Part shown: positions 1 to 50,858 of the stretch, piece by piece | How the letters are laid out: the number at the start of each line of letters is the position of its first letter | Numbering within the stretch: position 1 is the first letter of the stretch | IMG/VR virus record: IMGVR_UViG_3300007735_000802 | Length of the DNA: 64,000 nucleotides | Direction: 5' to 3' (one strand) | From: a virus | The notes under the pieces: model-generated | What the model saw: only the letters and a program-made list of their open reading frames with translations | Databases searched by the model: none | What the model was told of the DNA's origin: nothing | Made by a program: the position numbers and the translations under genes

Positions 1-353
1 AAGTAAAAATTTTTCGAAGGTGAGGCCTCCTTTGGATCTAGATCTACCCCCAAAAATATTCCATTAGATGGAATATTTTTAACAATAGTTGTTGTTGAAG
101 AAGAATCACCGTTTCTACAAACACCTATTTCTAAAAAATATCTAGGACTAGGCACACAAGCATTAATTGCTTCTTGCAATGCACTATGGTTTGATAAACT
201 AAATTCATCATTTGCTACTGGTCTTCTAAGCATTTCTTCGAATGGAGAACCATATCCCAAAGGATCACATATATCATCCTTTTCAGAATTGGTTCTTATA
301 TCTTTAACTAAGTCTTGTTTCCACTTTGTTGGTAAGTCTTGCCTCTGTAACAT
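1..353 (-). CDS. Putative class I SAM-dependent methyltransferase, runs off the window edge (not in ORF track)
   Basis: Manual translation from ATG 353 (GAGGA SD upstream): MLQRQDLPTKWKQDLVKD...PRYFLEIGVCRNGDSS...GIFLGVDLDP. The FLEIG and GVDLD segments resemble SAM-binding motifs I and II. Open to position 1. Confidence 0.6.
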   Translation of the reverse strand, partial: MLQRQDLPTKWKQDLVKDIRTNSEKDDICDPLGYGSPFEEMLRRPVANDEFSLSNHSALQEAINACVPSPRYFLEIGVCRNGDSSSTTTIVKNIPSNGIFLGVDLDPKEASPSKNFY

Positions 354-993
354 TTCCATCTTCCTCATATGAAATATCATAACCTAGAGTTATCAATCTT
401 TTTGTAATTTCAACTACGGCATCATGATCGCTGTGAGCATTAGATTCAAAGGATATAAATTCTGGCAACATTTCTGGTGAATCTGAATAATATTTCAACA
501 CACTATCTAAAATTTTACAATCATATCCTTCAGTATCAATTTTTAATTGTTTTACTTTTCCTATGTTATAGGTATCAATCAAATTTTTATATGTATAGCA
601 TGGTATTGTTTTTTTTGTAACAAGACCCATAGAAAGCAAATCTACCGTTTTTAAAGATTTTCTGTCTGCATGATGATGCCATGTCCAAGGACATGGAAAA
701 TATCCTGTATGAAAATCGTGTGGTTTTCCGACAGAATTACAACCCTTCATCCAAATTCCAAGATTAAATTTGTCAATAATTTCTTCTGTTACATAATAAA
801 CATCAAGACCATTACTGTCTTCATCAGCAACAACTGCTCCATTTATTTTAGTGACATTTTTTTTATTTGGAAGTTTATTTAAATATTCTAATATTGGTTC
901 AACGGACAATCCGTATTCAGTATCATCTGCTTTTTCAATTAAAGTATCAAAAAAAGCAGTTCCAATTTCAATAAAATCATAATCTTGTTTCAT
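304..993 (-). CDS. FkbM-family methyltransferase-like protein
   Basis: FIEIG, SVEP and LKIDTEGYDCKIL motifs typical of FkbM/Methyltransf_21 proteins. Confidence 0.7.
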   Translation of the reverse strand: MKQDYDFIEIGTAFFDTLIEKADDTEYGLSVEPILEYLNKLPNKKNVTKINGAVVADEDSNGLDVYYVTEEIIDKFNLGIWMKGCNSVGKPHDFHTGYFPCPWTWHHHADRKSLKTVDLLSMGLVTKKTIPCYTYKNLIDTYNIGKVKQLKIDTEGYDCKILDSVLKYYSDSPEMLPEFISFESNAHSDHDAVVEITKRLITLGYDISYEEDGNVTEARLTNKVETRLS

Positions 994-2183
994 TCGACTT
1001 TACCCCATGTTTGAATTGCTTTGTGATATTCTTCACCATATGCTTTGTCAATTGCCTGTCTCATTGCCTTAGCACCAGACAATGTCCCATTTGGATGTCC
1101 ATGCACCGCACCACCAGCATTTCCAAGATAATCATTTCCCACTAAGTTAGTGATCTTGTCAACAAGACCAGGATGCAATCCGCAACTCAATGCTGGGACT
1201 GTGTTTCCCTCTCTGAGAATTCTAATGCATTCCAAAGTTTCTGCCTCGTCGTGATTGCTATAACCACCAACCATTCCTGTTTGGATTGTGTCAACGCCCA
1301 TAAGTGTTGCCAACTGGCACATCACAGTCCAACTGATGCTAAAACGATGCTGTGCGTCTGTGACTACCTTTGCTCCGCTGCTCTGGTAGTGAATGTAGAT
1401 GGGCAGATCCAACTGACGAATGCTGTTGTATGCACCGTAACCACTCCAGACATTGATATGCACACCATTTCCCCCTAATGAGTGAACCTTGGTAACGCGA
1501 TCAACTAGAATATGAGGATCACAGTTAATTGTGTGACAGAATACAACTTTTTTGGATTGAGTCGCCATGTAATTTGAAATTAGTTCTACTCGCTTTTCTA
1601 GTGGGCAGAAATTAGGATTAGACATGATTTCATCTTCCTTGATAAAATCAACACCACCATCAACTAACTCCTTTACCATATCAAGAAGAGTGTCCGGACT
1701 AATTCCAATTTTTGGTTTAATTATAGCACCAAATAATGGTTTATTATACTGCCCAGTAAACTCACGCATTCCAGATATACCAAACTTTGGACCTTTAAAT
1801 TGAGATGTTACGCTTTGTGGCAATTCTAACTTTATTAAACGACAACTTTTTATTAAATCAATATCTACATGACCACCCATAACTTGACAAAGAAGGTGAC
1901 TTATTCCGTCAGTGTTCCAGTCTGTGTTAATTATAGGAAAAGCAATTTTTACTTCTCCATTTTTCTTTTTAAGAAGTTGTTTTTCACTCCCTAAAATTAA
2001 ACAAGAATGATTTTTAAAAAGATCTTCAGTTTCCCATCGATTTCTTACATTTGGATTTCCCACACTTTGTCCGATTGCTATATTCCAAGCAGCATCTCTT
2101 AAACTTTTATTAGATTTAATTTGATATGTAGCAATGAAATAATTGTTAAGATTCACATCGTTTTCAGTTACAAATAAGTTCAT
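990..2183 (-). CDS. RuBisCO-like protein (RLP, form IV-type, predicted non-carboxylating)
   Basis: FKGPKFGISGMR, IIKPKIG, GGVDFIKEDE (RuBisCO motif), NAGGAVHGHPNG...GAKAMRQA; several carboxylase residues are substituted. Confidence 0.9.
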   Translation of the reverse strand: MNLFVTENDVNLNNYFIATYQIKSNKSLRDAAWNIAIGQSVGNPNVRNRWETEDLFKNHSCLILGSEKQLLKKKNGEVKIAFPIINTDWNTDGISHLLCQVMGGHVDIDLIKSCRLIKLELPQSVTSQFKGPKFGISGMREFTGQYNKPLFGAIIKPKIGISPDTLLDMVKELVDGGVDFIKEDEIMSNPNFCPLEKRVELISNYMATQSKKVVFCHTINCDPHILVDRVTKVHSLGGNGVHINVWSGYGAYNSIRQLDLPIYIHYQSSGAKVVTDAQHRFSISWTVMCQLATLMGVDTIQTGMVGGYSNHDEAETLECIRILREGNTVPALSCGLHPGLVDKITNLVGNDYLGNAGGAVHGHPNGTLSGAKAMRQAIDKAYGEEYHKAIQTWGKVE

Positions 2184-2184
2184 A

Positions 2185-2514
2185 TTATTTCTCCAAAATT
2201 TCTATCTTATCTCCAGGAACAGAAGGAGTCTTTACTACAAGAACTCTACAATCTTCTAAAAAAATAGGATCTGATATTTCCATTTTGTTAAGAACAAAAA
2301 TATCTCCAGGATTAATCTCTGTGTTATGTATAGTCATTTTACCATCTAGAAGAACATTATATTCGTCCGTCTTAGCATGATAATGTTTTGGCCAGTATTC
2401 TCCTTTTTTGTGTGTCATTACTGCTACTTCAAAATTTTTTGTCTTTAAGACAGATGGTTCAAAGTCTCCAATAAACCATCCACCTTTCATCGTATTTAAT
2501 TTTATAATTTTCAT
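2185..2514 (-). CDS. Cupin-fold protein
   Basis: GWFIGDFEP, HYH...EYNVLLDGKM and PGDIF segments match the cupin metal-binding pattern. Confidence 0.75.
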   Translation of the reverse strand: MKIIKLNTMKGGWFIGDFEPSVLKTKNFEVAVMTHKKGEYWPKHYHAKTDEYNVLLDGKMTIHNTEINPGDIFVLNKMEISDPIFLEDCRVLVVKTPSVPGDKIEILEK

Positions 2515-3224
2515 AATTTTCTCAAATATTCTCTTAGATCATCAGGTGTTCCAACTGAATTATGCATTATATCTGGAATATGGAAAATGCCAACTCTTTT
2601 GTTGTGTTTAATCATATAATTATATGTTGGTCCAATATAATATTCTCCATTAATAGATTTGTCTTTTTCTTTGATCATTTCTTCTGCACTGTTGACAAAA
2701 TCGTTTCCATGTTTCCAATAATGTATACCATTCAAAGAGATATTGCTAATGATTTCTTTTTCTTTTACCTCTACGACTCTTCCATATCTGTCTAATCGGG
2801 CATAACTATTTTTTGGTGTATTTGCATAATAAGTAACAATTATTCCATCATGCACATTATTCTGAATTGATTTTATAAAAAATTCACTATCCCACCACAT
2901 TATCTGATCACAATTTGCTATAATTAATGGATCATTATTATTGATATACTTTTTCATCAATAGTGCGGTAGATGCTGGACCTTCTGTTAAATAATCTATT
3001 TCTAGTATAACAGAATTATCATTATGTTTTGCAAGCAAACTTTTTAAGTCTTCACTAAAATTACTTTTGCGAATAACGAATAGATAACGACCTTTGATTC
3101 CTAAAGAATCAATAGCATGAAGAATCATTTCTTTGTTTTCTATTTTGATAAGAGGTTTTGGATCTACAAATCCTTCGTCACTAAATCGTTTACCAAGACC
3201 AGCAAGAGGTATTAATATATTCAT
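2511..3224 (-). CDS. Sugar nucleotidyltransferase-like protein (GT2_BcE/BcbE-like)
   Basis: ILIPLAGLGKRF...PKPLI nucleotide-binding loop, TEGPA, IANCDQ, VKEK, NGEYYI, GTPDDL. Confidence 0.85.
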   Translation of the reverse strand: MNILIPLAGLGKRFSDEGFVDPKPLIKIENKEMILHAIDSLGIKGRYLFVIRKSNFSEDLKSLLAKHNDNSVILEIDYLTEGPASTALLMKKYINNNDPLIIANCDQIMWWDSEFFIKSIQNNVHDGIIVTYYANTPKNSYARLDRYGRVVEVKEKEIISNISLNGIHYWKHGNDFVNSAEEMIKEKDKSINGEYYIGPTYNYMIKHNKRVGIFHIPDIMHNSVGTPDDLREYLRKL

Positions 3225-4141
3225 AATATAACCTTATTGATTATCTGCTGAATTAAGTTATTTTCATACTCAAATTCAGGACTCCAATTGTACATAGTAT
3301 GTATAATTGGCAATCCAGTATCAAAAACAAAATTCATGTTGTGTCTTTCACGGTATTTGTTTATTGCAACTTCATCAAAATTATCAACAAATAATGAACG
3401 ATCTGTTATGATATTTTTCCAATTTGTTGTTTTTATTCCAAAAATATTATTACAAAAATAAGGATATTTACTATTATCTTTTATAATAGTTCTTTCTTTT
3501 GGAGACATTACTTCTTTAAAATTTTGAATTATATAATCATTGATTCTTTTTTGACAATCAAATCTAACTCTAACTGGATGAATACCTTTATAATAATGAT
3601 TAAAATTTTTTACTTTAGAATAAAATCTATCTGAATCCCACTCTGGCAAATCTTCGTTTAGAGATCTGTAATCAGCACCATGATCTGCTAGTTTGGTTTC
3701 ATTAAACATCAAATAAAGTTCTTTTTTTATTGAAATAGCGTGATTTTGCAAAAATAATTCAACTGTGGGAATTCCAGAGGAAATAGCACCAGTTGTAAGT
3801 AAATCATTTTCTTCTAACGATTCGATGTTGTGAAAAAACTTATCCCAAGAATCGGTAGTCATAAAACAATCTTCATCGTGTTTTACTGAATATTCGTGGT
3901 TTTGATTTAAAGCAAATACTACTTTCATTAAGTAGTTTAGCATATGACTGCGATCAAAATAATAAAATGATACTCTATCACCCAGATAAGATTCTATGGT
4001 ATTTTTACTAGAAGTATCGATACCATTAGATAAAACATAAAAATGAAAATTTTTATATCTACATTTAGATAATTCATGGGCATGTGCTAATATAAAATTT
4101 TCTCTGCGAGCACCAAGACAAAATATACCAATTTTTTTCAT
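3221..4141 (-). CDS. Putative GT-A fold glycosyltransferase
   Basis: VKHDEDCF DxD-like motif after a Rossmann-like N-terminus; lies in the glycan island; start moved to ATG 4141, after the upstream stop. Confidence 0.55.
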   Translation of the reverse strand: MKKIGIFCLGARRENFILAHAHELSKCRYKNFHFYVLSNGIDTSSKNTIESYLGDRVSFYYFDRSHMLNYLMKVVFALNQNHEYSVKHDEDCFMTTDSWDKFFHNIESLEENDLLTTGAISSGIPTVELFLQNHAISIKKELYLMFNETKLADHGADYRSLNEDLPEWDSDRFYSKVKNFNHYYKGIHPVRVRFDCQKRINDYIIQNFKEVMSPKERTIIKDNSKYPYFCNNIFGIKTTNWKNIITDRSLFVDNFDEVAINKYRERHNMNFVFDTGLPIIHTMYNWSPEFEYENNLIQQIINKVIL

Positions 4142-4146
4142 AATAA

Positions 4147-4827
4147 TTATTCCTGTATTTTCCAATTTTCGTATCCACTATCTTTGTCTGGATCAATGTC
4201 TGGGTGTGGATTCCAATCATAAACATCTTTGTCTTTTAAATATCTCACAACTGAATATGGATTAAGTTTATAATTCCATTTACCCTGACATCTAAGTCCC
4301 CATTCAACATCTTCTCCCTGACCCCAACACAAATTATTGTTCTGTGGATTTTCCAACATAAATTTTTTACTGCCACACCAATATGTGCCGTTGATATACA
4401 TTTCTCTTATTTTTGTTGGATCATTATACTTAACAAAGTGTAAAGGTCTGTGTTGTGTAAACCAATCCCTATGTCTTAATCCATTTTTCATTCTAACTGG
4501 ATTCATACAAACATCCCAATCGTATCCAAACTTGTCATATCCTATAACCCAGTTTTCGCAAAAAGCAACATAGTCATGACTCAAGCAAATATGTTCGTAT
4601 TTTGCATTTTGAACTATAAGATTTTTCTTAACGGTTACCCAACCAGGTCTTATGGTTTCTTCAAAAACTATATTTTTAATATTTTTATTTTCTAATTTCT
4701 TTATTGTTTTGATATATGGACCAATCAATATAATTTCAAATTTTTTAATATTTTTTTGATTTACTATTGATTTAATAATTTTTTCAATATAAAGATCATT
4801 AGAATAACATATTCCAAATGTCCACAT
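4147..4827 (-). CDS. Putative GT2-like glycosyltransferase
   Basis: TFGI, FEIILIG, KKNLIVQNAKYEHICLSHDY and WGQGEDVEW (GT2 ED motif). Confidence 0.7.
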   Translation of the reverse strand: MWTFGICYSNDLYIEKIIKSIVNQKNIKKFEIILIGPYIKTIKKLENKNIKNIVFEETIRPGWVTVKKNLIVQNAKYEHICLSHDYVAFCENWVIGYDKFGYDWDVCMNPVRMKNGLRHRDWFTQHRPLHFVKYNDPTKIREMYINGTYWCGSKKFMLENPQNNNLCWGQGEDVEWGLRCQGKWNYKLNPYSVVRYLKDKDVYDWNPHPDIDPDKDSGYENWKIQE

Positions 4828-4829
4828 AG

Positions 4830-5459
4830 TTAACCTTTATTTTCCCATCCACACATACCATTTTCATAATTAATTCCTGCTTTACTAATACCAACATAAA
4901 TTTTATGATTTTCTATTTCGTGAATAGATGATGTGCAATAATTGTCTAATTTACAAAAATTGTAATCATTACTGTTATTTCTATAGTAATCTATTAAATA
5001 TGCATGTTCAGTTTCTCTAATTGATGGATCAAGTTTTGCCTTTTCACACAAATTTTTCCAAGGTTGAATAAACTCCAATGATTTTTTAGTATTATTGAAA
5101 AACATAAAACATGCATGAGGAGTGCCAATATCATAATACCATTTTCCAATATCGTATTCTTTATTCCTCATAAAGAATCCAATGTCACATGTTAATTCTT
5201 TCAATTCATCTACTGGTTTTATGAAAGAACAATCTATGTCTATCCATATAACGGCATCATTTAATTCTTTTATCTTTTGTTCAATAAAAGTTGGTTTATG
5301 AAAATTTAATGTTTTATAATTTGGATTATCAATTTGAACATTGTCAATACTATATTCGTATCCAAGAGAATCTAACTGTTTTTTTAAATTTAAATAACAA
5401 TTTTCATAATATTTTGATTTTTCTGGATTACAATCATACCAAAAAGAAATAAATTTCAT
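4830..5459 (-). CDS. Putative nucleotide-diphospho-sugar transferase (GT-A)
   Basis: KPTFI...VIWIDID DxD motif; paralogous to 5456..6118. Confidence 0.65.
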   Translation of the reverse strand: MKFISFWYDCNPEKSKYYENCYLNLKKQLDSLGYEYSIDNVQIDNPNYKTLNFHKPTFIEQKIKELNDAVIWIDIDCSFIKPVDELKELTCDIGFFMRNKEYDIGKWYYDIGTPHACFMFFNNTKKSLEFIQPWKNLCEKAKLDPSIRETEHAYLIDYYRNNSNDYNFCKLDNYCTSSIHEIENHKIYVGISKAGINYENGMCGWENKG

Positions 5460-6118
5460 AAATTCCCCACTAGGTTATATTTAACTGCTTCTTCATTCAT
5501 TCCCATTTCACGCAAAGATTTTTCTTTAGAAACTCCATCCGCAATACCCATTGTTATCATTGGTTGCATTGTGTTTGGTATTGAAGTACCAGGCCATATT
5601 GCATAGTTTATTGGCAACATTCCTATTTTTAGTTTATGTACATACTCTGGTAAAACTTGAAACATGAGTATTTCATGATCAAAGACTTTACTTGTATTTG
5701 ATCTTAAATTTTCTTCACACTTTAAAATCCAATAATTTAAAAATTCAATCACTATGTCTTTGTATGTAAAATAAATCGGAGATGCTTTTGGAAGTGTGAC
5801 ATTGACATTTGGTGGTAGGCCCTGATACGCAAAAGCAATATCACAATTATTTTCTATTTCATCAAACACTTTCAATTCAGCATGAATTAATGAATCTACA
5901 TCCAACCAAACAAATGGTTTTTTCTTTTCAAGCAAAACATCTAATATAAACTTTGGTTTTGCCAAACAATTTAATCTGTACTCTCCTCTAGATGGAAGTT
6001 CTCTCACATCATGTGGAATATTATTTTCGTTGCAGTTGATACGCAACCTACGCGAATGATCGCTGTAGTAGGTTCTTCCATCAATGTCTGCATAAAATGA
6101 TACAATCTCAGTTTTCAT
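5456..6118 (-). CDS. Putative nucleotide-diphospho-sugar transferase (GT-A)
   Basis: KPKFIL...FVWLDVDS DxD motif, DHE, LPINY. Confidence 0.65.
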   Translation of the reverse strand: MKTEIVSFYADIDGRTYYSDHSRRLRINCNENNIPHDVRELPSRGEYRLNCLAKPKFILDVLLEKKKPFVWLDVDSLIHAELKVFDEIENNCDIAFAYQGLPPNVNVTLPKASPIYFTYKDIVIEFLNYWILKCEENLRSNTSKVFDHEILMFQVLPEYVHKLKIGMLPINYAIWPGTSIPNTMQPMITMGIADGVSKEKSLREMGMNEEAVKYNLVGNL

Positions 6119-6950
6119 TGATTAACTCAAACAATATATCGTCAGCATTCTTGAGTTCTTTAACACGATTAAAGTTATCTCTTACTGCTTCTAGTTTACT
6201 TTCATATAACTCTTTTGTCAACATTTTTGGATCAAAATCTGGAGTCAATTCTATAATTCCATCTTTATTGAAGATATCTCCAATATCAGGAGTTCCCCAG
6301 TATATTGGAATAGTTCCAGTTGCGAAACAGTCTGTCAACTTTTCTGTATAATATGTTTCATACTTATCATTCTCTATTGTGATTGAAAACATGTACGGAT
6401 TTAAAAGTTCTTCTTTGTTTGGCCATGGATTTCCTTGATCACCAACTCTATTTGATCCTGCTGCTCCACCAAATAAATCAATTTGATTTTTAAATTTTTC
6501 TGCAACTTGATGTCTTATATGATGTCCAAATGTAACTTTTTTCCCAGAAGCAATCATTGAAACTATCTTGGTTTTATCAAAAATCTGATGATTTTTAACC
6601 CAAGGCAAATTACTGCCAGCTGGACAATATTTGATATTAGGATGCTTTCCAACCCACTGTTTATCAGAAACAAAAACAATATCATAAGAATCTGATATAT
6701 TTTTTAAATTATCTTCCCAAACATTTATTGGAACATACCATGAATGAAAAATAGCACGGGATTCACAGATCCATGCTATTTTTCTTTCCCCTAATTTTTT
6801 CTGATACATCATCCCAGGGATTATATGTGAATCAACAAATACCTTTACTGGATGATCTTTTAAGACCCAATTAAAATTTTTTGGTTTATAATCCGAGCAC
6901 GAAGAATATTGATATAAAAATCCACCACCTATTAACTGCATTTCCTTCAT
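6108..6950 (-). CDS. GT10-family (fucosyltransferase-like) glycosyltransferase
   Basis: YMFSITIEN...YYTEKLTDCFATGTIPIYWG is the GT10 signature. Confidence 0.85.
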   Translation of the reverse strand: MKEMQLIGGGFLYQYSSCSDYKPKNFNWVLKDHPVKVFVDSHIIPGMMYQKKLGERKIAWICESRAIFHSWYVPINVWEDNLKNISDSYDIVFVSDKQWVGKHPNIKYCPAGSNLPWVKNHQIFDKTKIVSMIASGKKVTFGHHIRHQVAEKFKNQIDLFGGAAGSNRVGDQGNPWPNKEELLNPYMFSITIENDKYETYYTEKLTDCFATGTIPIYWGTPDIGDIFNKDGIIELTPDFDPKMLTKELYESKLEAVRDNFNRVKELKNADDILFELINEN

Positions 6951-6968
6951 AGTATAAAGTCTCCACCA

Positions 6969-6976
6969 TATGTATG
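6969..6976 (-). promoter_or_regulatory. Possible variant late promoter (CATACATA) directly upstream of the glycan island
   Basis: Variant of TATAAATA just before the GGAG SD; a similar GATACATA precedes gp19. Confidence 0.45.
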
Positions 6977-7375
6977 TTACTTTCCTATGTGGTATTTAGG
7001 AACCAGAGTCCATTCTTGTTTGTCTTTGAATGGAATTATCTTCAATCTTGCAAGAGATAATTGTGGTTCTTTATACTTGTTTGGATCTAACGGAGTGATC
7101 AAACCCCATTCTGTCAAAAGTTTAACTATTGTATTTCTTCGTCCAAGATCATCAGTTGACATATCAGATTCTAAACCATCAAGTACAAACATTTCTTTAA
7201 AATGCATGATGGCATATCTACCTCTCTTGTGTAGTATGTGACAAGACTGATATAACTTTTTTTCTGTTTTTGAAGAAACTCCGATTCTAGTCAGGGTTTC
7301 TTTAACTTTAAGAAAGTCTTCTTCTGAATTTAATTTTACTTCTACACCCAATCCCTCAAAAATATCTTCTGTCAT
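6977..7375 (-). CDS. regA: Translational repressor RegA
   Basis: FLKVKETLTRIGV, LYQSCHILHKRGRYAIMHFKE, WTLVPKYHIG. Confidence 0.97.
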   Translation of the reverse strand: MTEDIFEGLGVEVKLNSEEDFLKVKETLTRIGVSSKTEKKLYQSCHILHKRGRYAIMHFKEMFVLDGLESDMSTDDLGRRNTIVKLLTEWGLITPLDPNKYKEPQLSLARLKIIPFKDKQEWTLVPKYHIGK

Positions 7376-7400
7376 AATAAACTCCCATATTGACAGAAAA

Positions 7401-7408
7401 TATTTATA
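7401..7408 (-). promoter_or_regulatory. T4-type late promoter TATAAATA upstream of regA
   Basis: Exact consensus in the intergenic gap. Confidence 0.65.
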
Positions 7409-13467: not shown

Positions 13468-14175
13468 TTAATTATAGTCTTTAGAGTTAGGATCTGGATT
13501 CCAATCACTGAACCTATTACCAAAGTTCTTATTATCCTTCTCATCACCAGTAAAGCGATTACGCTTCTTAACTTCATCTACCATATTCAATAAAATCTTT
13601 GGATCTAATATACCAGAGCTAACTAAATTCATAATGGATTCCGCAGGAATGTATAACTGCATCATTATCATATGACGATCCAGTTCTCTTTCATCTGTCA
13701 TGTCCGGTGGAAGATAGTCTGATTTTTTACTTTTTCTTTTCTTCTTGTTCTTTGGTGCTGAATAATTATTTTCAGGCATAGCGTTTTTGAAGAGTTCTTC
13801 CGTTGAAGTTAAAAAATCTTCTAACATTGAACTAAAAGAATTCATATCAATTTTTTCATCTTTTGATTCTTCAATAGTATCTAAAGTTTTTGAATTAAAT
13901 TCTCTATCACTTTCCATTTCATATAATTTTATAGTATCTGCATTTGGTTCAATTCTAAATGCTATATGATTTAAAGGTAATTCTATATCCTTTGAATCTG
14001 TGTTCATCAACCAATCATGAAGTGATGTTATGTCTATAATTCTTCCCAATTCATCTTGAGAAACCATAGTTTTAAAAACCATTGGTTTATGTATCTTAAT
14101 AAAGTTATCATTTTCTTCAAGAACCTGACATGCTATTTCTTCACCACTTCTGAGTTTAAGAACTTTTAAATTCAT
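13468..14175 (-). CDS. Conserved hypothetical protein downstream of uvsW (Sm-like N-terminal domain)
   Basis: KVLKLRSGEEIAC...IHKP N-terminus typical of the T4-like gene between uvsW and gp55. Confidence 0.6.
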   Translation of the reverse strand: MNLKVLKLRSGEEIACQVLEENDNFIKIHKPMVFKTMVSQDELGRIIDITSLHDWLMNTDSKDIELPLNHIAFRIEPNADTIKLYEMESDREFNSKTLDTIEESKDEKIDMNSFSSMLEDFLTSTEELFKNAMPENNYSAPKNKKKRKSKKSDYLPPDMTDERELDRHMIMMQLYIPAESIMNLVSSGILDPKILLNMVDEVKKRNRFTGDEKDNKNFGNRFSDWNPDPNSKDYN

Positions 14176-31574: not shown

Positions 31575-34500
31575 TTAACACGCTTCATAATCAGAACAAT
31601 CGGAACCACATAAAATAGGAACACACAACTCTTCATTATTTATAGTTATTTTTACATTTTTAATTGTTGTGTTTGTTGAATATCTGAATGTTAACGATGG
31701 AATACATGAAACTGATTCGTTTATAATTAAATTATCACAATTCACAATTCTTTCAAGATCACATGGTGGACTAAATGTACCTGGAGGACCAACTTGACCA
31801 ATTTGAGGACCATTATTGCATTCTTCAACACATTGTTGTGGTTCACAAGTTCCTGTTGCACAACAATCACATCCACCAGGATAACATTCATCTGGAGATC
31901 TACAAGGACCAGCAGCACAATCACATATAGTTGATGGAGCTACTTTATATCCAAATAACAAATGTGCTCTGTGATCAACATACTGCAATACTGGACAAGA
32001 TAATGGACCACCACCACTACAGCACAAATCAGCCCAATGCCAACCATATTGCCATGGTCCACCAAGTAATTGATCCGAACTTCCATTAGGCCACATGTTT
32101 AAATAAGACCATTCATTATTTACTATTGCTTGTGTTTTTGGTAAAAATGTAGAATATGTTACTCTTACTTTTCCATCAAGCGATGGATCATAACATTCAA
32201 CACCAAGAAGTTCTTTGTCTGGTCCAAGACCACAATCTAAAAACTTCTCATAAAGAATTTCTCCGAGTGTACCTTTTAATTCTGTTGGAGTTATTAATCC
32301 ATTAGCTACTTTACTTCTCCAACCATTTTGAGTTCCAAAATAAATACTGTCTTGAGCTTCTGATACGCTTGCTCTGTTTTTGTCTGCGGTGTCAAATGAT
32401 TGATTTTCAGCAAATTTTATAAAACCGCCATAAACTATTCCACCATTCAAATATGTTAATCCCGCTTCATAATATAAAGGATCGTGAATAATTCTTGTTT
32501 GTGTAGTTCCTAAATTGCATGGTCTATTATCTGTTGGATATTGCGTATCTGAACTTTTCTTGAAAAACATTTGTCTTCCTGCTGGTTGATAATTTTGCAA
32601 GTAAACAATTGTCGAGTTGCTTTCTGGTATTGCAGCTCCTCCTTGATTTATTTTTCTAAGATTATGAAATCCTCGAAAATCAAATGTGTCAAAATATGTT
32701 TGTGGTTCAGTAGTTATTATCTGTACAGGTCTTGTTTTTGTACAAAAAAGACAATCTGTTGAATCAAATACATAATCTGCTGCAATAAAATTATCGCTGT
32801 CTACTGGATAGTTTGCAAAAAATCTTGCCTTATCCCACCATGCACCTCCAGATGCTTCACATTGTTCTCTATTTCTTGCTGCTGGATCGCAAATGCCATC
32901 AGTGCTATTTGGTGATTTTTTACAACAAATACCGGTATGATATTCTATAGTTCCGCATGGTTGCGCCGAACATGTTATATCTTTTCTAAATGTTTGATTT
33001 GTTCCAGAACAATTTTGTCTTGTTACATTATCAGCGCATGTGAAATTACCTGAAGTAGTTTCAGTACAACAAGATCCAGTTTCTACTTCAACAGTATCAC
33101 CACATGTACATGCACAACTTATTTCACCACATTGCTTATTTGGTCCCATAAAATATGTTTTGATTTGACCAGCAATTGTTCTATTCAAGCATCCAGTAAA
33201 AGTGTCAGAAACACATGTAGATGTTCCTGCTGCTATATCACATACACAACATGCACCAACGACATTTGTTTGATCGCAGCAGTTTACATCTGCACATGTT
33301 CCTCCAGTTACAGAAAGACCACCAAGAATTAATTCACATTGAACTCTGGTATATCTTCCTAAACAAACTCCATCTTTACAGCAAACTGTTTGTTGTGAAT
33401 CGCAAGGATCATAACAAAATCTTCCTTGTGCTTTTAATTCTTCTTCCGACAAATCTCCGGGTGGATTGTTTGTTCCTGTTGAATTATTATAATCCGAACA
33501 TGTAATTCCGGTCCAATATTGACCGCCGTATGCTTCACACAATGATATCGAAAGTCCCTCTACACATGCACCACCAACGCAGCAAACTCCTCCAAGACCA
33601 CATGTTTTGTCACATGCCAATCCTGGATTGAATGATCCAAATAATTTATCACACTCTGATTTTGTAGAATAATCTCTGCATTCTTTTGTTCCATCGGGAT
33701 TAGTAAAGCAGCAAGATCCATACAAATATCCAGGAATGCATTGTCTATAGACATTTGTAACATTATGACCACGATGAGCAACTGTTGCTAACCATGTTTG
33801 ACCAGCGTCATAACTCAATAATCCTATGATGTTTCTACCACACGATAGGTAGTTTTCACTTGGTTCAAAATAAACATTATCTGGAAATTTCCAAACATTA
33901 TCAGAATCAATAAAGAGAGTGACGGATGCAATTTCACCCTCAATAAATGTTCCTGTTAATCCTTGTATACCAATTGGTGTTTTGATATCAAAAGCACCAG
34001 CAACATCACAATCTAAAAATATACCAAGAGTAGTTCCAGTGGTAAAATTCGGTTCTCCATATAGCCCAGAATATTGATCTTGTTTTACAGGACCAACAGT
34101 TTTAATTCTTGCTGCTGAATTGAGATGAATGGAAGTGTCTGAACTTGCACCTGCATTTCCATCGGTAAACAAAAATTGAAATGCTCCAGAATATCCTGTT
34201 CCTTGTTGAATATTTAAATCGCCACCATATACAGTTGTTGTATTTCCAAGGTAAAGAATATTGCCATTTTGCATAGAAGCGGCATTATAATTTCCTGGAA
34301 CATCATTTCCCCAATATATGCTGTCTATTGAAATGTATTCATTGTTTGGTCCTGTATATGATGCTCTGAGAGAACCATATGCAGATATACCTCTAAAATT
34401 AAATGTACCACCAGAAACATTCTTGAATAATGTTCTACCTCTTGATGCATAAGTACCAAGACCAATGCTTTCTCCAAGAACAAGACCTACAGATTTATCA

Positions 34501-34742
34501 TTTACTGTCGCTCCTCGAAACGACCCAATAATTTCAGCAGTAGATCCATCAGAAAAATTTAATAGAATAGAATTAGCAAATGCAGAATAACTTGTATAAT
34601 ATTTTCCAGATGGACCCGTAGGACCAGTAGTTCCAGTAGAACCAGTTGGACCTATTCCACCGCTTGGACCTAACGGTCCAGCTGGACCTGTGATTCCATA
34701 CGCTCTTGTGCTGCTTATTGAACTGCTACTCATGGATTGCAA
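31575..34742 (-). CDS. Cys-rich putative tail fibre with N-terminal collagen-like G-x-y repeats
   Basis: GITGPAGPLGPSGGIGPTGSTG...; several GxCC repeats; located between baseplate and neck genes. Confidence 0.65.
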   Translation of the reverse strand: MQSMSSSSISSTRAYGITGPAGPLGPSGGIGPTGSTGTTGPTGPSGKYYTSYSAFANSILLNFSDGSTAEIIGSFRGATVNDKSVGLVLGESIGLGTYASRGRTLFKNVSGGTFNFRGISAYGSLRASYTGPNNEYISIDSIYWGNDVPGNYNAASMQNGNILYLGNTTTVYGGDLNIQQGTGYSGAFQFLFTDGNAGASSDTSIHLNSAARIKTVGPVKQDQYSGLYGEPNFTTGTTLGIFLDCDVAGAFDIKTPIGIQGLTGTFIEGEIASVTLFIDSDNVWKFPDNVYFEPSENYLSCGRNIIGLLSYDAGQTWLATVAHRGHNVTNVYRQCIPGYLYGSCCFTNPDGTKECRDYSTKSECDKLFGSFNPGLACDKTCGLGGVCCVGGACVEGLSISLCEAYGGQYWTGITCSDYNNSTGTNNPPGDLSEEELKAQGRFCYDPCDSQQTVCCKDGVCLGRYTRVQCELILGGLSVTGGTCADVNCCDQTNVVGACCVCDIAAGTSTCVSDTFTGCLNRTIAGQIKTYFMGPNKQCGEISCACTCGDTVEVETGSCCTETTSGNFTCADNVTRQNCSGTNQTFRKDITCSAQPCGTIEYHTGICCKKSPNSTDGICDPAARNREQCEASGGAWWDKARFFANYPVDSDNFIAADYVFDSTDCLFCTKTRPVQIITTEPQTYFDTFDFRGFHNLRKINQGGAAIPESNSTIVYLQNYQPAGRQMFFKKSSDTQYPTDNRPCNLGTTQTRIIHDPLYYEAGLTYLNGGIVYGGFIKFAENQSFDTADKNRASVSEAQDSIYFGTQNGWRSKVANGLITPTELKGTLGEILYEKFLDCGLGPDKELLGVECYDPSLDGKVRVTYSTFLPKTQAIVNNEWSYLNMWPNGSSDQLLGGPWQYGWHWADLCCSGGGPLSCPVLQYVDHRAHLLFGYKVAPSTICDCAAGPCRSPDECYPGGCDCCATGTCEPQQCVEECNNGPQIGQVGPPGTFSPPCDLERIVNCDNLIINESVSCIPSLTFRYSTNTTIKNVKITINNEELCVPILCGSDCSDYEAC

Positions 34743-37700
34743 TTGCCTCCAAGAACATCAAGACACGAATTACAATTATTGCTAAATGTTATACCACTTG
34801 TAGGTATACCATATTGATTTGAAGAACTTGCTGCGGTGAAAAAATATTGCGTACATGTCACAACTATAGGAATTCTTCTCACTGGTCGTAAAGCGGCACT
34901 CTTGCTGTTTCTATTTCTACATTTCATCATGCCCAACTCGTTTTGATTTTGACCTTCTGTTAAATCAAATACTTGAGTTAACATTTTTTGTCCATTTGCA
35001 ATTTTCATTGTATATCTATACGCTTCATCTGCATTTAATCCAAATGAATTGTTGCTTGTTATTCTATTTGATGCAAGATATGGTTCTATTTGAGAATCAA
35101 TTGGTTCTAGTCGATATGAATCTTTATTTAATGGATCAAACGCATCCCATTCTTTGAGTCTGGTCACACTTGTAGAACTCCAATATTCATTTTCTCCAAT
35201 TATTTGATCACCATTTACTGCAAGGGATGCATTTAATTCCTCAAGATTGTAGTACATGTAATTTAATTCAACAATGCTTGGAACATACCAATCGTTGTGA
35301 CCATATAATCCAGATTCATTAATTTGAGAAATTTGTCTCATTGCTGAATCTTGTGGATTTTTTCTAGACCACATTTCAGCAAACGCTTGATTGTGTATAA
35401 TTGGATTTGTGTTTATATCATTTTTATTATAGATAGAGCTCCACGCTGGACCATTTCCAAACGAAAATTCAGTATAGCAGTTGCTAAATTGTGGATTACT
35501 AAGATTAAACCATGGATTTTGTATTCCTTTAAATGCACTGGAATCATGCATTCTTGTATTTACAAGACCATCTACTGTAAATGTTGGAACACTTCTTCTT
35601 GAAATTTCAGAAGGAGATCCGTCACTATTTGCAAGATTTCCTCCTTGCATCATACCCCAACTTATTTTTCTAGATCCACCATATTCAACATCTTCAGGAC
35701 CAACAATCAATGCCCACATGACATGAATTGCTGTTGGTCCATAAATTATTGGAGCAAGTACCGAATAATCAGAGTTGTTTAAATCTCCAATATTTTCATT
35801 TGCCAATCCAGAATTTTTCAAACTATATGAATATGCTCCGCGATTTGGTGTATAACTGTTAGAACCTTCAAATAAAATTTCATTAGGCCATGTAATTCCA
35901 TTTAAACTATATGCTTGTTGAACATATGGAATACCGGACTTTACCAAGCAATTTGTATTTAAAGATTTTACTGGTAGTGTTTCAGGGAAAGTTCTTGCAA
36001 AGTAAAGTATATTACCAGCATTATCAGCACCTGATACACCTTTGCAAGTCTTGCAGCGATATGTTGGTGGGACATTTGCTAAATTTCCTCTTGGATTTAT
36101 TAGACATTCTAATGGTTCTCCAATTGCCAAATTTGGATTTGAATATGAAGAGCATGGATTTGGCATACCAATAAATCCAGCAAAATAACCACCACCAATT
36201 TTATCTCCAATATTTAAACAAGAATATATTTGATCATTGAATGGTTTACATGCATTTGCTTGCGGACCATTAAAGAATTCCGCTGAGTATGAAGAACCAC
36301 AACAAGTTACCTCAGCACAAACTGTTCCAGCACCTTGAAATACTTTTCCTGGACCCATACAGTCTTTTGGTAATTTTCCATTTTGACATCCTGTATCTGT
36401 ACAACATGCTCCCTTAAGACGAGGATCTGCACAGCAATTTGGATCACTTATTTCTGATTCACAAGTAGAACCGGAAACAAAGAATGAATTAAATATAGAT
36501 GCACAATCTTGTTGTGATAAATTAAAACACCTACCAGATACACAACACTTTCCTAATTGTGCTGTACCTGTGTTGCATATATTAGATGGACAATTAAATA
36601 TTGTTCCATCGACCCAAACATTTCCACAAGATCTTCCAAGATTAAAATTTCCCTTTACTTGATTGCAACGCTCTTGTGTGGTATTAATGCATGTTGAACG
36701 ATTTATCGTATAGTCATAAACACAACAAGCACCTTCGGTATAACAATCACTTCCACTTTCTCGTTCACTGCAACCAGTTTGTGAAAATACTCCTGATATT
36801 GCTGCACAATAATCAGATGAAACATAATCTAAACAAATTTTATCAGAAGTTGCAGTGTTTTTACAATAACAACAAGAACCAATATTTGGTCGTCTTAAAA
36901 GTTGTGGTTTATATGTGTTTGTGTATGATATACCTGTGCTTCCTATGAAAACTATTTGTTCCATAGTTGCGCCACTTGTTGCACCAAATACTATTTTTTG
37001 ACCAAGAGAAATATATGAACTTGTTAGTGAATCAAATGCTGGTCTAAATCCATTGGTTCCTGGTATTGCTATAAAATCAGGAGATATAGTATTAATCAAT
37101 ATTGAAGTTAAAAATGTTCCACCAGTTCTTCCACCATAATTATTCAATGAAACAGGACTTGGATTAAATATTGGATTTGCACCAGCAGAAACATTCCAGT
37201 TTCTTGTTTGTGTTAAAGATTCACGAAAGAAAGGTTGATCTATTATAAGTTGTCTTTCTTCTGCTACCCATTCTGTGTTTGGTGCTGCTGCTGCTTTAAG
37301 TGGAGTTGTTCCAAATCCTGCATTGTTGTTAATGTACAATAGTTCACCAGTATTACCTAGAGGAATATTAACATCAGCAACTGTAGCACCAAAAATGTAT
37401 ATAAAGTTATTGTCTGAACTTATTCCAAGATCTCCATCCGATGGTTCTCTAAATGGATTTGGTATTGATCCTGTTATTCTAAAACTTTTAAACTGTGCAG
37501 TTTCACCAGCAGCATATGAAGTTATTGGTGCTGAATTTAAATCACCAGGAATAAATCTAGTAGAAACAGAAGTTGGGGAATATGTTCCAAGTTGTGCTAT
37601 GCTATAGAATTCTGTTCCATTTGCAGAACCAGCAGACCCTTGAAGATTATCAAATGTAAATGCAAAAGTTCCACTATAGAAATAAATTGATGTAGAATTT

Positions 37701-37870
37701 CCAGTAACACCCGAAATTCCTGCACCTGTTGTTCCTGTAGGACCAATAGGACCAGTTGGACCTTCTGGTCCAGTATCTCCAGTTGGACCTTTTGGTCCAC
37801 ATGCTCCTGGATTTGCACCAGGTATTGAACCAACTATAATTCTCTTAATAGATGAAGATCCGTATATCAT
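34730..37870 (-). CDS. Cys-rich putative tail fibre, collagen-like N-terminus, DUF1566/Lcl-like C-terminus
   Basis: GPKGPTGDTGPEGPTG; GACC repeats; IGDKIGGG, DWYVPSIVEL, YWSST, LRPVRR. Confidence 0.7.
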   Translation of the reverse strand: MIYGSSSIKRIIVGSIPGANPGACGPKGPTGDTGPEGPTGPIGPTGTTGAGISGVTGNSTSIYFYSGTFAFTFDNLQGSAGSANGTEFYSIAQLGTYSPTSVSTRFIPGDLNSAPITSYAAGETAQFKSFRITGSIPNPFREPSDGDLGISSDNNFIYIFGATVADVNIPLGNTGELLYINNNAGFGTTPLKAAAAPNTEWVAEERQLIIDQPFFRESLTQTRNWNVSAGANPIFNPSPVSLNNYGGRTGGTFLTSILINTISPDFIAIPGTNGFRPAFDSLTSSYISLGQKIVFGATSGATMEQIVFIGSTGISYTNTYKPQLLRRPNIGSCCYCKNTATSDKICLDYVSSDYCAAISGVFSQTGCSERESGSDCYTEGACCVYDYTINRSTCINTTQERCNQVKGNFNLGRSCGNVWVDGTIFNCPSNICNTGTAQLGKCCVSGRCFNLSQQDCASIFNSFFVSGSTCESEISDPNCCADPRLKGACCTDTGCQNGKLPKDCMGPGKVFQGAGTVCAEVTCCGSSYSAEFFNGPQANACKPFNDQIYSCLNIGDKIGGGYFAGFIGMPNPCSSYSNPNLAIGEPLECLINPRGNLANVPPTYRCKTCKGVSGADNAGNILYFARTFPETLPVKSLNTNCLVKSGIPYVQQAYSLNGITWPNEILFEGSNSYTPNRGAYSYSLKNSGLANENIGDLNNSDYSVLAPIIYGPTAIHVMWALIVGPEDVEYGGSRKISWGMMQGGNLANSDGSPSEISRRSVPTFTVDGLVNTRMHDSSAFKGIQNPWFNLSNPQFSNCYTEFSFGNGPAWSSIYNKNDINTNPIIHNQAFAEMWSRKNPQDSAMRQISQINESGLYGHNDWYVPSIVELNYMYYNLEELNASLAVNGDQIIGENEYWSSTSVTRLKEWDAFDPLNKDSYRLEPIDSQIEPYLASNRITSNNSFGLNADEAYRYTMKIANGQKMLTQVFDLTEGQNQNELGMMKCRNRNSKSAALRPVRRIPIVVTCTQYFFTAASSSNQYGIPTSGITFSNNCNSCLDVLGGNCNP

Positions 37871-40800
37871 TATGGTCCTGGTTTATTCCTATATAGGTAT
37901 TGAATAATTCTTTCTGTACTATTAAATGCAATTGGAGTATATGTCAAATCATTTGCTTGTTGTGTTCCTTTTACTATTGCAGCTATTGAGAGTCTGGGAA
38001 CATGCCAGAAAGCATTTCTTTGTGCGGTATCATCATTATTATCGTAATAATTTTGATCACATCGTATTAATCTTACTGGTCGCAATTCATAAAAATCATT
38101 ATAGTTATCTGCTTTTTTAACTTTAAAGTTTGTATCTGTTGGTGATGTGGTAGAATCAAATTTTATCGCCCATGCTTTTGTAAATTTATTTGTGACATAT
38201 AATGGATTTGATGATCCTGTTGTTCCTGTGAATGTAGGATCATTTTGTGGTATTGGAGTTGTATTATTTGCTTGCAAAAATTGTTTTGTAATACCTTCAT
38301 CAAAAGAAGCAGTAGAAGACCAAACCCAACTATTTGCCAGTATTCTTGGATCTCCAATACGAACGCCATTTGCATTTGCTATTTTTTGTTGTAGATTATT
38401 TGTGCTTGATCTACATGCATTTGCTATAAATGCAAGTTCGTCGATGCTCGGCACATACCATCTAGAAATTTGTGGAAATCCAGATTCTTTCATCGATACT
38501 ACTTGTGGTTGTTGAGAAGATGACAACCAAGGATATGATGACGGTCCAATAAGAGAATTGTTGTTATAAGTAGTACCACCAACAACTTTAGTTGGAGAAT
38601 CTGAAGGATAATAAAATAAATTATGAACAGAAAGCCCTTCTACTATAGTAGTTCCACTTCCTGAATTATATACTGGATTAAAACTTGCAGTTGGTCCAAA
38701 CACTCGCTTATATACTCCATTGACTAATGGAGGATTAACTGTTGATGTATAATAAGTAGTTAAATTAGATCCCGCCATTCTGATTGTATTATACAATCCC
38801 CAATTTAATGAGTAAAATCCAGAAGATCTTGCAAATATTGAGGGACTACCGCTAGTTGCTCTTCTAAACGGCGAATCTTTACAATTTGTGTCACAGTAAG
38901 TGCCGGCTCCCGTATCCACTTCGCATACAGGATTAAATGTTGTAAGATTTCCCCACATTGTAATACCAGGAAAATTAACACCATATAGTCCATCGCAGAA
39001 TAAATTTGAAGATGTAATTCCACATGTATTATTTTCAATTCCAACAGCAGGAACTATTTGTCCTGTTAATAAATCATCAGAATATATTGGACCAAATGAT
39101 GTTCCTCCATGGTTCCATCTGTAATTAATTACCCAGTTTGTATCAAGAGCTACATCTCCTCCATTATTTGGAATAGTTATATCATAAGTATTCGAATAAC
39201 TAACAGTTCCCTGAATATTAGTTCCTGTGTTGTCAATCCATTCTGTGGAAATTTGATCGAAATTAGTTATACCGTGTACATATGTATGATTAATAAATGA
39301 TCCATATGGTCCTGCACCAATACTAACAATTTTTTCTTGTCTAAACATTACTGGATACTTGGAAACAATAAGCAACCATTGATCTTGATCTTTATTAAAA
39401 TTTGATCCATCTTGTATTTTATTTCCTAAAGTAAATCCATATCCTTGTGGATTGAATTGAGATTTATATAAAGAACAAGATCTTTCTGTTCCTGTATTTA
39501 ATGATTTAAATTGTTGTATACTAACTGGATCCTCAAAACCAAATGGATTTCCGCCATGTCCAGTATATCCGAAGCATGTAGAACCATTTGGATTAAATAA
39601 TCCAACTACAATCCCTCCTGCAAACTCATCTCCAATGTAAACATCTCGATAACCAATAAATGCACCATTTGCATTATATTTTTTAATTCTAAATGGTTTA
39701 GGACTTGCTCCAGAATTTTCTGTTATTTCGCATGTAGTTTGTGGTTCTGGTTGTGCCACGCATGTAAAATCAGGAAAATCAACAGATGCATTTGCACATA
39801 AGTGACCACATCCATAAAAAAGACCATTACAACTTGATTGATTATTTACATTACTACAATTTCCATTGTTGCAGCATCCCGCAGTTCCGTCTAGACATAC
39901 TCTAAAATTTGTTGGAGATCCATTATCATTGTAAGTATAATTACATACTCTTCCAAGGCCTTGCCAGAAATTAGTACATGCATTTTTTCTGGTTTGTGTA
40001 CAATCTCCTGCTGCTGTTCCATCGCAACATGCACCAAGATCTTCGAAGTAATTTTGACAATCGATTGCATCTACATTTTTAACACAAGCACTAATTGGTG
40101 TCCACGAAACCCATGGGTTGCTTGGATTTGTCAGTCTTGCTGTCTGCTGACAAAGACACTGAGTTATTGGTGTTGGATTTTTTATTATTGTATTATTTGC
40201 ATTTTTATAGCAACAGACTCCAACCGGAGCAGATGTTGAAGACCCCGTGCATCCAGAATATCCTGCAGTTTGTCCTTGGAAAAACTGTGCAATTCCCTGA
40301 TTAACAAATGGTTGACATTCTTCTTGTGTTATTACTCTTGATTGATCAAAAGAACATCCAAAGCAACAAAGTCCAGTTACTGGGGGTGGGGGAGGTGGTG
40401 GTCCTTCTGGATCACCTATTGATCTAGAACCAATACAGTCATAATAAGAAGCATTCCATTCGACAGCAGATGTTCCTGAATTAATTATTCCATAATTTGC
40501 ATACCATGTATAATCAAGAGAAACCATATTGATTACATCAACATTATTTGTAAAGCATGGAGGATATAACAAAGGCCATGCAATATTATATGTTAAGTTT
40601 TCAAATGTTGCACCCTGTGTTAAATCGTCACTCGAAGCAAATAAAGTTAATGGAGCACCCGATCCTCCTGTTACACCGGGTGGAATAATAATTGTCAATG
40701 ACTTTGCAACATCTGCTCTTGGAGGATTTCTTACTCTTACTATTTGTGCAAGAATGCTCTTTTGTGGAGTAATCTGATCATTATATCGATTAAGAATAAA

Positions 40801-50850: not shown

Positions 50851-50858
50851 TATTTATT
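50851..50858 (-). promoter_or_regulatory. Late promoter variant AATAAATA for gp25
   Basis: 7/8 match 6 nt before the ATG; no SD. Confidence 0.5.

Follow-up and report, generated by a model that had tools for sequence, protein, structure and literature searches.

A 64,000-nucleotide stretch of IMG/VR virus record IMGVR_UViG_3300007735_000802 (the window) belongs to an uncultured T4-like myovirus and carries, immediately after the regA gene, a run of ten open reading frames (ORFs) with the predicted products of a glycan pathway: a RuBisCO-like protein (RLP), a sugar-phosphate nucleotidyltransferase (NT), a small cupin, two methyltransferases and five glycosyltransferases (Table 1). The best overall explanation, to which we assign a probability of about 0.6, is that these genes are the end nearest to regA of a hypervariable island for glycan biosynthesis, in which a cassette for synthesis of an activated sugar donor is combined with swappable transferases; the NT-cupin-RLP trio probably makes an unusual activated sugar. 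An initial annotation of this DNA had proposed at least ten abutting minus-strand genes encoding a self-contained pathway of donor synthesis, multi-step transfer and methyl capping that decorates virion proteins. The run of ten genes is borne out, all ten gene assignments being upheld by profile hidden Markov model, fold and motif evidence. A glycan-type biosynthesis operon is supported, as is, from its conservation among relatives, a donor core with variable transfer. The supposed self-containment is not supported, however; the island is cut by the start of the window, positions 1-7408 cover only part of it, and a syntenic locus carries further genes.

The RLP matches PF00016 with 130.5 bits (cut-off 30.1), its KEDE motif aligning to KDDE, and belongs to the RuBisCO large-subunit superfamily as a form IV RLP in the broad sense. 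Alignment to the Pyrococcus protein 2cwx shows that K175, K177, K201, D203, E204, S379, G381, G403 and G404 are kept, and that E60, T65, W66, N123 and T173 are lost, as are H294, R295, H327 and K334, which are replaced by Q, S, Q and Y respectively; the replacement residues are invariant among 12 relatives. In the numbering of the island protein, K175 and K201 correspond to K156 and K182. The protein has kept the Mg/carbamate site and a single phosphate site and lost the residues that serve the second phosphate and carboxylation. Judged from this predicted active site the protein cannot be a carboxylase, as it departs from the pattern of bona fide RuBisCO (forms I-III), and it scores 195 bits against TIGR03326, for which the cut-off is 497. 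Scores against the MtnW/OiaX equivalog models fall below their cut-offs as well (172 versus 409 bits for MtnW, 139 versus 514, and 153 versus 700). The characterised RLPs, namely the MtnW DK-MTP-1-P enolase, the R. rubrum MTRu-1-P isomerase and the OiaX 3-oxo-isoapionate-4-P decarboxylase, share with the island protein the same fold, the carbamyl-Lys/Mg2+ site, K175 and one phosphate site, and the chemistry common to all of them is likely enolisation of a keto-sugar phosphate. By analogy with this established chemistry, the metal site and single phosphate site of the island RLP would fit enolisation of a keto-sugar monophosphate. The settings differ, in that the characterised proteins act in catabolic or salvage contexts, whereas the island RLP lies in a biosynthetic one, among NT and glycosyltransferase genes; to our knowledge, every pathway known to employ a RuBisCO-like protein is a salvage or catabolic one.

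The clade to which this RLP belongs comprises more than 3000 metagenomic proteins and is present on 180 IMG/VR contigs, and a tblastn search with RLP gave no match in 50,697 deposited phage genomes, a set that may have lacked records close to the genome of the window. We surveyed its gene neighbourhood by ORF clustering over 91 loci, comprising 80 viral loci, 10 cellular loci and the window itself. The NT accompanies RLP in 86 of the 91 loci, with 97 of 99 copies within 3 kb, and the cupin adjoins RLP in 59. A methyltransferase of either the Methyltransf_24 family (30 loci, directly after RLP) or the FkbM family (31 loci) adjoins RLP in about 60. A family of GDPD-like mini-phosphodiesterases of 140-160 amino acids (aa), which has no Pfam match and is recognised by its HRG...E.D...HD motif only, is present in up to 68 loci, a number that is an upper bound because the single-linkage cluster also took in unrelated longer ORFs. 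The order of the cassette varies and adjacency is kept, with the arrangements NT-cupin-RLP, RLP-NT-cupin and RLP-cupin-NT all represented, and this is also true in Pelagibacter, Verrucomicrobiae, Patescibacteria/Beckwithbacteria, Planctomycetes and Bacteroidota. The RLP-NT pairing occurs in nine of the 10 cellular loci, and the copies in Pelagibacter, Verrucomicrobiae, Patescibacteria/Beckwithbacteria and Bacteroidota sit among surface-glycan genes. For example, a complete chromosome of a Candidatus Pelagibacter sp. (L086, 755-9969) has an NT-RLP pair, the RLP being 59% identical to the phage protein, with a HAD-NT fusion, a GT9, a 2-hydroxyacid dehydrogenase and a CMP-sugar-type cytidylyltransferase as neighbours; this pair may be a trace of phage-host gene exchange, or a hint as to the host, and the cellular homologues taken together would make SAR11 and Verrucomicrobia candidate hosts. 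The NT-cupin-RLP core co-occurs far beyond chance, both in the relatives of this phage and in cellular glycan loci. The initial annotation had named conservation of an RLP-cupin-NTase-GT neighbourhood as a check, and the first three of these do travel together, but the glycosyltransferases are not conserved along with the cassette and are freely swapped.

Some RLP loci form a cupin-less sub-lineage, in which the order is GDPD-like, NT, RLP, c8_242 and FkbM, and within this sub-lineage (L038:14933-15976, L060:923-1816 and relatives) genes for radical-SAM/SPASM proteins are repeatedly found a few kb away at most. The 242-aa c8 family is without a Pfam match, and two Bacteroidota genomes likewise have it after the cassette; neither the c8 nor the GDPD-like family is found anywhere in the window.

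Phage (Myoviridae) and Beckwithbacteria proteins described as 'form IV-like' and related to RuBisCO were reported in 2019 by Jaffe, Castelle, Dupont and Banfield, with their function left unassigned (PMC6389311). They resemble the island RLP in being divergent, in lying on myovirus contigs and in having lost the carboxylase residues; the relatives that we recovered from IMG/VR contigs are 54-92% identical to the window protein, and a Beckwithbacteria relative was recovered here too, in a metagenome-assembled genome (L092, 49% identity). The part of that report available here makes no mention of gene neighbourhood, and the placing of an NT-cupin-RLP cassette, with or without methyltransferase and GDPD-like genes, in a glycan island is a product of the present analysis; in the full-text literature we found no paper linking a phage RLP to a nucleotidyltransferase.

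The NT is predicted to be a sugar-1-phosphate nucleotidyltransferase of the RmlA/GalU fold. It matches phrog_3980 (E 3.7e-61) and, over its full length (residues 3-236), PDB entry 4evw (E 9e-12), and has an N-terminal G-x-G-x-R loop in the form LAGLGKRF at residues 7-14. There are weak matches to mannose-1-P guanylyltransferases, and the match to rmlA_long (E 4e-14) is under its cut-off; because the Pfam and NCBIfam scores are all under their cut-offs, neither subfamily nor substrate can be assigned. The cupin has conserved residues H44, H46 and E51 and no fourth His. Its matches are to generic cupin_2 neighbours (YxaG at 5e-6, the 113-aa 'mannose-6-phosphate isomerase' 7zvm at 1.3e-4, KdgF, and PDB 3d82 at E 2e-4), with no specific match to the RmlC, FdtA or PMI families. 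A nucleotidyltransferase is also paired with a cupin in the type II PMI-GMP enzymes (AlgA/XanB/ManC), in which the two are domains of one protein, whereas in the island they are separate genes, RLP is added and PF01050 is unmatched. The NT-cupin pair could thus be regarded as analogous to a split form of the PMI-GMP enzymes by architecture only, the 7zvm profile match being weak. Of the two methyltransferases, the FkbM-family protein has a 73% identical homologue at the same position in the syntenic locus L007, where the homologue of the truncated w01 is full length (224 aa, 56% identity) and matches PF13578, Methyltransf_24 (E 1.4e-6). Since a methyltransferase travels with RLP, the methyl groups attributed initially to capping may instead be added to the donor sugar.

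Each of the five glycosyltransferases was assigned separately. The first, with 36.7 bits against PF00852 (cut-off 23.9, E 4.5e-9) and a C-terminal EN..YxTEK motif in the form IENDKYETYYTEK, is a predicted member of the GT10 fucosyltransferase family. The adjacent w09 and w08 are weak paralogues (26% identity over 91 aa, E 3e-5) that share a W(I/L)D(I/V)D motif near residue 72 and map to the PF03407/PF05637 GT-A clusters with an Atlas feature score of 0.98; their GT-A assignment comes from the Atlas features and the WxDxD motif only, folds having been predicted just for w06 and w07. Relatives of w09 number 643 among 1.84 billion representatives. The w07 model (pLDDT 92) matches K4CP, WrtF, ppGalNAc-T and TarS with Foldseek probability 1.0 and TM of 0.61-0.70. 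A profile of w06 gave no significant match among PDB sequences (the best was B3GNT2, E 0.2), and a fold search was therefore needed; its model (pLDDT 92) reaches a Foldseek probability of 1.0, and VIA Z scores of 13.5-12 to COLGALT1, GnT-I, SpsA and RmlT, and D89-E90-D91 are invariant columns. All four proteins, w06 to w09, have the attributes of GT-A fold DxD glycosyltransferases. We considered whether the top neighbour of w06, the collagen galactosyltransferase COLGALT1, is a sign of a collagen target, and rejected this, as it ties within 1 Z with GnT-I, SpsA and RmlT.

Table 1. Features of the regA-proximal island and of related elements in the window
Feature	Position	Strand	Basis
TATAAATA late-promoter-type motif	7401-7408	-	36-nt gp62-regA spacer, 25 nt upstream of regA ATG
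regA translational repressor	6977-7375	-	phrog_242 E 2e-51; final backbone gene ahead of island
GT10-family (fucosyltransferase-like) glycosyltransferase, 280 aa	6108-6950	-	PF00852 and family motif
w09, small soluble GT-A DxD transferase, 220 aa, PF03407/GT34-like	5456-6118	-	Atlas features and WLDVD motif
w08, small GT-A DxD transferase paralogous to w09, 209 aa	4830-5459	-	Atlas features and WIDID motif
w07, GT2-like GT-A glycosyltransferase, 226 aa	4147-4827	-	AlphaFold model and Foldseek
w06, GT-A glycosyltransferase, 306 aa from ATG 4141 (TTG 4165 possible start)	3221-4141	-	Fold and invariant D-E-D
Predicted sugar-phosphate nucleotidyltransferase (NT), RmlA fold, 4evw-like, 237 aa	2511-3224	-	phrog_3980 and PDB 4evw
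Small metal cupin, 109 aa	2185-2514	-	HxH...E motif; phrog_24762 E 1.5e-28
RuBisCO-like protein (RLP), 397 aa	990-2183	-	PF00016 E 1e-37
FkbM-family S-adenosylmethionine (SAM) methyltransferase, 229 aa	304-993	-	PF05050 24.6 bits, cut-off 22.7
w01, second class-I methyltransferase, N-terminal 126 aa, cut by window edge	3-380	-	L007 homologue
Large collagen-segment genes	31575-41514 and 50857-56505	-	G-X-Thr collagen-like segments

The ten genes are tightly packed, with spacings between neighbours from -19 (overlap) to +26 nt, except for the FkbM and w01 pair, which overlap by about 50-77 nt. The transferase genes have a GC content of 25-31% and are AT-richer than the backbone genes, and a scan for hydrophobic stretches of membrane-helix length found no transmembrane segment in any island protein. 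Comparison with two other loci illustrates how variable the island is. The closest record to the window, G001, is a 35-kb fragment that shares gp62, regA, the GT10 gene and w09 with it at 91% DNA identity, regA being 96% identical, the GT10 82% and w09 98.6%. Its island (L004, 6056-19726) begins at the same regA junction, and is longer and has different inner genes, including a GT7 (beta-4-galactosyltransferase-like), several GT2s, a DUF707 protein, a TylF O-methyltransferase, a HAD protein, an FkbM protein and an NDP-hexose C-methyltransferase-like protein, together with a 54% homologue of w07 and with an NT and a cupin that are 42% and 38% identical to their counterparts in the window. The syntenic locus L007 carries all ten island genes of the window, beyond which it encodes a GDPD-like protein, two GDP-mannose dehydratase-like SDR enzymes, a DegT aminotransferase, a GT2-TPR protein and a collagen-repeat protein, the last of which ends the island.

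A late promoter had been placed at 7401 by the initial annotation, and it is credible: the TATAAATA motif lies just before regA, and the same core precedes structural genes. It has the attributes of a predicted T4-type late promoter (TATAAATA at -10, no -35, close to a gene start, and used by late genes). The octamer is as frequent in the window as chance would have it (9 copies versus 9.0 expected). The ATAAATA core is depleted, with 21 copies versus 36.4 +/- 5.6 expected and at least 21 copies in 100 of 100 shuffles, and eight of its 13 coding-strand copies are followed 18-26 nt later by a start codon, in most cases that of a structural gene such as gp23; this depletion and placement suggests selection against spurious late promoters. 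Similar motifs, CATAAATA or CTAAATA, are found before regA in L006, L008, L010/L011 and L066. A second candidate promoter, the variant CATACATA at 6969 (~6969-6976), is present but misfits the late motif of this phage, (N)ATAAATA, and we reject it. Because the 46-regA-43 stretch of T4 contains no TATAAATA, and the T4 record lacks regulatory features, there is no T4 precedent for a late promoter before regA. A scan for sigma-70-type promoters gave 83 matches versus 67 +/- 7 in shuffles, which is uninformative in such AT-rich DNA. Given the placement of TATAAATA, and since there is no copy of ATAAATA within the island and no terminator-like site on the minus strand from 7400 to 1, regA and the island can be read as a single, predicted late-promoted transcript. 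We infer from this that the island is expressed late, possibly with earlier read-through from the gp45-44-62 genes.

In the pathway that we envisage, RLP would enolise, and so isomerise or epimerise, a keto-sugar monophosphate, the small cupin would perform a further metal-dependent isomerisation, and the NT would convert the resulting sugar phosphate into a nucleoside-diphosphate (NDP) sugar; the two adjacent SAM methyltransferases would methylate either the sugar or the finished glycan, and the five soluble glycosyltransferases, one GT10 and four GT-A, would build an oligosaccharide in the cytoplasm. The operon would be transcribed together with regA from the late-type promoter, and possibly earlier by upstream read-through. 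A more specific proposal is that RLP acts here in biosynthesis, which would give the RuBisCO fold its first anabolic function, and that together with the cupin, NT and methyltransferase it would yield an undescribed NDP-sugar (rearranged, and possibly branched or methylated) that is placed late on Thr-rich collagen-like virion fibres; taken as a whole, we regard this proposal as rather improbable.

Several observations weigh against a donor cassette and virion-directed transfer of this kind. RLP is far under all of the NCBIfam equivalog cut-offs and matches no characterised RLP family, and the cupin, of a generic cupin_2 type, gave no Pfam match to the PMI cupin family PF01050. The G001 island keeps the NT and cupin without RLP, so that not every NT-cupin module depends on RLP. 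As far as it is visible the pathway is incomplete, there being no mutase, kinase, HAD enzyme or GDPD-like gene in the window. The island is the tail of the gp45-44-62-regA replication operon, and RLP islands in general lie mostly among replication and transcription genes, being located in other phages beside primase, helicase or gp55 and not beside structural genes. Finally, collagen genes are near RLP in only four of the 80 viral loci.

As to the acceptor, our tentative first choice, held at well short of even odds, is a set of Thr-rich collagen-like fibre proteins of the virion, for which the late-type motif ahead of regA and the collagen-like segments are circumstantial arguments. In the window, three large genes in tandem (1055, 1046 and 1214 aa) all start with about 11 collagen-like triplets, rich in G-P-T/G-S-T, and their products share only this N-terminal region (42% identity over about 80 aa); a further protein of 1882 aa has a GPP/GPT segment at residues 904-936. 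All four are likely to be fibre proteins whose distal parts have been exchanged. Thr occupies 48% of the Y positions in the collagen protein at the end of the L007 island. These G-X-Thr segments recall, by analogy, O-glycosylation of the BclA type. We also considered a collagen gene as a general neighbour of RLP, and rejected this on the four-locus count given above. The fibril glycans of chlorovirus PBCV-1 and Mimivirus are known examples of virion glycosylation, the B. anthracis protein BclA serves as an acceptor model, and Freeman reportedly described O-glycans on mycobacteriophage capsids and tails in 2023. The likeness of the island to the mycobacteriophage, PBCV-1 and Mimivirus systems consists in soluble glycosyltransferases, methyltransferases and synthesis of the donor by the virus itself, and is one of analogy only.

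Second in rank, and on balance unlikely, is an acceptor among the host envelope glycans. In such a scheme the cassette and transferases would remodel the host surface by modifying lipid-linked intermediates of lipopolysaccharide or capsule, so as to block superinfection or the adsorption of progeny to debris. The cellular copies of the cassette have GT9, WavE-like and CMP-sugar enzymes around them in envelope-glycan loci, O-unit assembly at the cytoplasmic face typically employs soluble glycosyltransferases, and the transferase islands of pelagimyophages have been read as modifying the host O-chain (PMC7029224). However, there is no initiating phosphoglycosyltransferase, flippase, polymerase or ligase in either the visible island or L007, and upstream of the island we recognise a promoter motif of the late type only, a timing poorly suited to superinfection exclusion by a lytic phage.

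It is very unlikely that RLP and the cupin are instead auxiliary metabolic genes for sulfur or pentose salvage that lie beside glycan genes by accident. Such a role could be modelled on the MtnW enolase and a cupin dioxygenase or on the R. rubrum RLP and its cupin methylsulfurylase, and RLP-plus-cupin pairs were reportedly described by Erb and by Warlick in 2012 in the methylthioadenosine-isoprenoid shunt and in methionine salvage. MtnW models do match the island RLP at E 1e-50, but with 172 of the 409 bits that the cut-off demands; moreover, the tightest partner of RLP is the NT, which has no role in salvage pathways, there is no other salvage gene in the neighbourhood, and the genes are translationally coupled within a transferase operon. 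T4-like phages are known to glycosylate their DNA, T4 glucosylating and RB69 arabinosylating hydroxymethylcytosine. That the island transferases similarly hypermodify phage DNA bases using a phage-made NDP-sugar, as its position at the end of the gp45-44-62-regA replication operon and the DNA role suggested for cyanophage glycosyltransferases (PMC12801897) might indicate, is scarcely credible, given that no gene of the ThyA/gp42 (thymidylate-synthase/dCMP-hydroxymethylase) family could be found in four records of related RLP phages, including one that is 100% complete, that five transferases plus methyltransferases far exceed known DNA systems, that the same cassette occurs in cellular surface-glycan loci, and that fold searches show no transferase resembling the T4 alpha- or beta-glucosyltransferase.

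A glycan island of this composition has close parallels in the islands of marine T4-like phages, in which GT2, GT10, GT11, GT25 and other transferases are clustered with NDP-sugar enzymes (PMC7029224; S-SCSM2R, PMC12801897), and the authors of these papers speculate on the host O-chain or DNA as the target. Neither paper mentions RLP (the word 'rubisco' occurs 0 times in PMC7029224), and unlike those islands the one described here hangs on regA with a predicted late promoter. Phage RLPs (PMC6389311) and transferase islands of aquatic T4-like phages (PMC7029224, PMC12801897) are already known; the island is a good biochemical lead and not a new discovery. The presence of an RLP clade beside an NT in glycan loci of abundant aquatic phages, SAR11 and the candidate phyla radiation does provide a directly testable hypothesis of a new nucleotide-sugar pathway. 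If the island is a swap-prone, late-promoted glycan module, its target would explain the transferase islands common in marine and freshwater T4-like phages.

The remainder of the window conforms to a T4-like genome. Almost all of its genes are on the minus strand, and the backbone order is gp23, uvsW, gp55, gp47, gp46, gp45, gp44, gp62 and regA, followed by the island from 6950 to the window edge; the arrangement in T4 differs, gene 43 lying directly after regA in the T4 record. The major capsid protein shows about 55% identity to its counterparts in cyanomyoviruses, pelagimyophages and Methylophilales phages. Between gp55 and uvsW there is a 235-aa ORF (13468-14175, minus strand) with weak PHROG matches, to phrog_527 and to phrog_471, 'methylamine utilization' (E ~1e-8).

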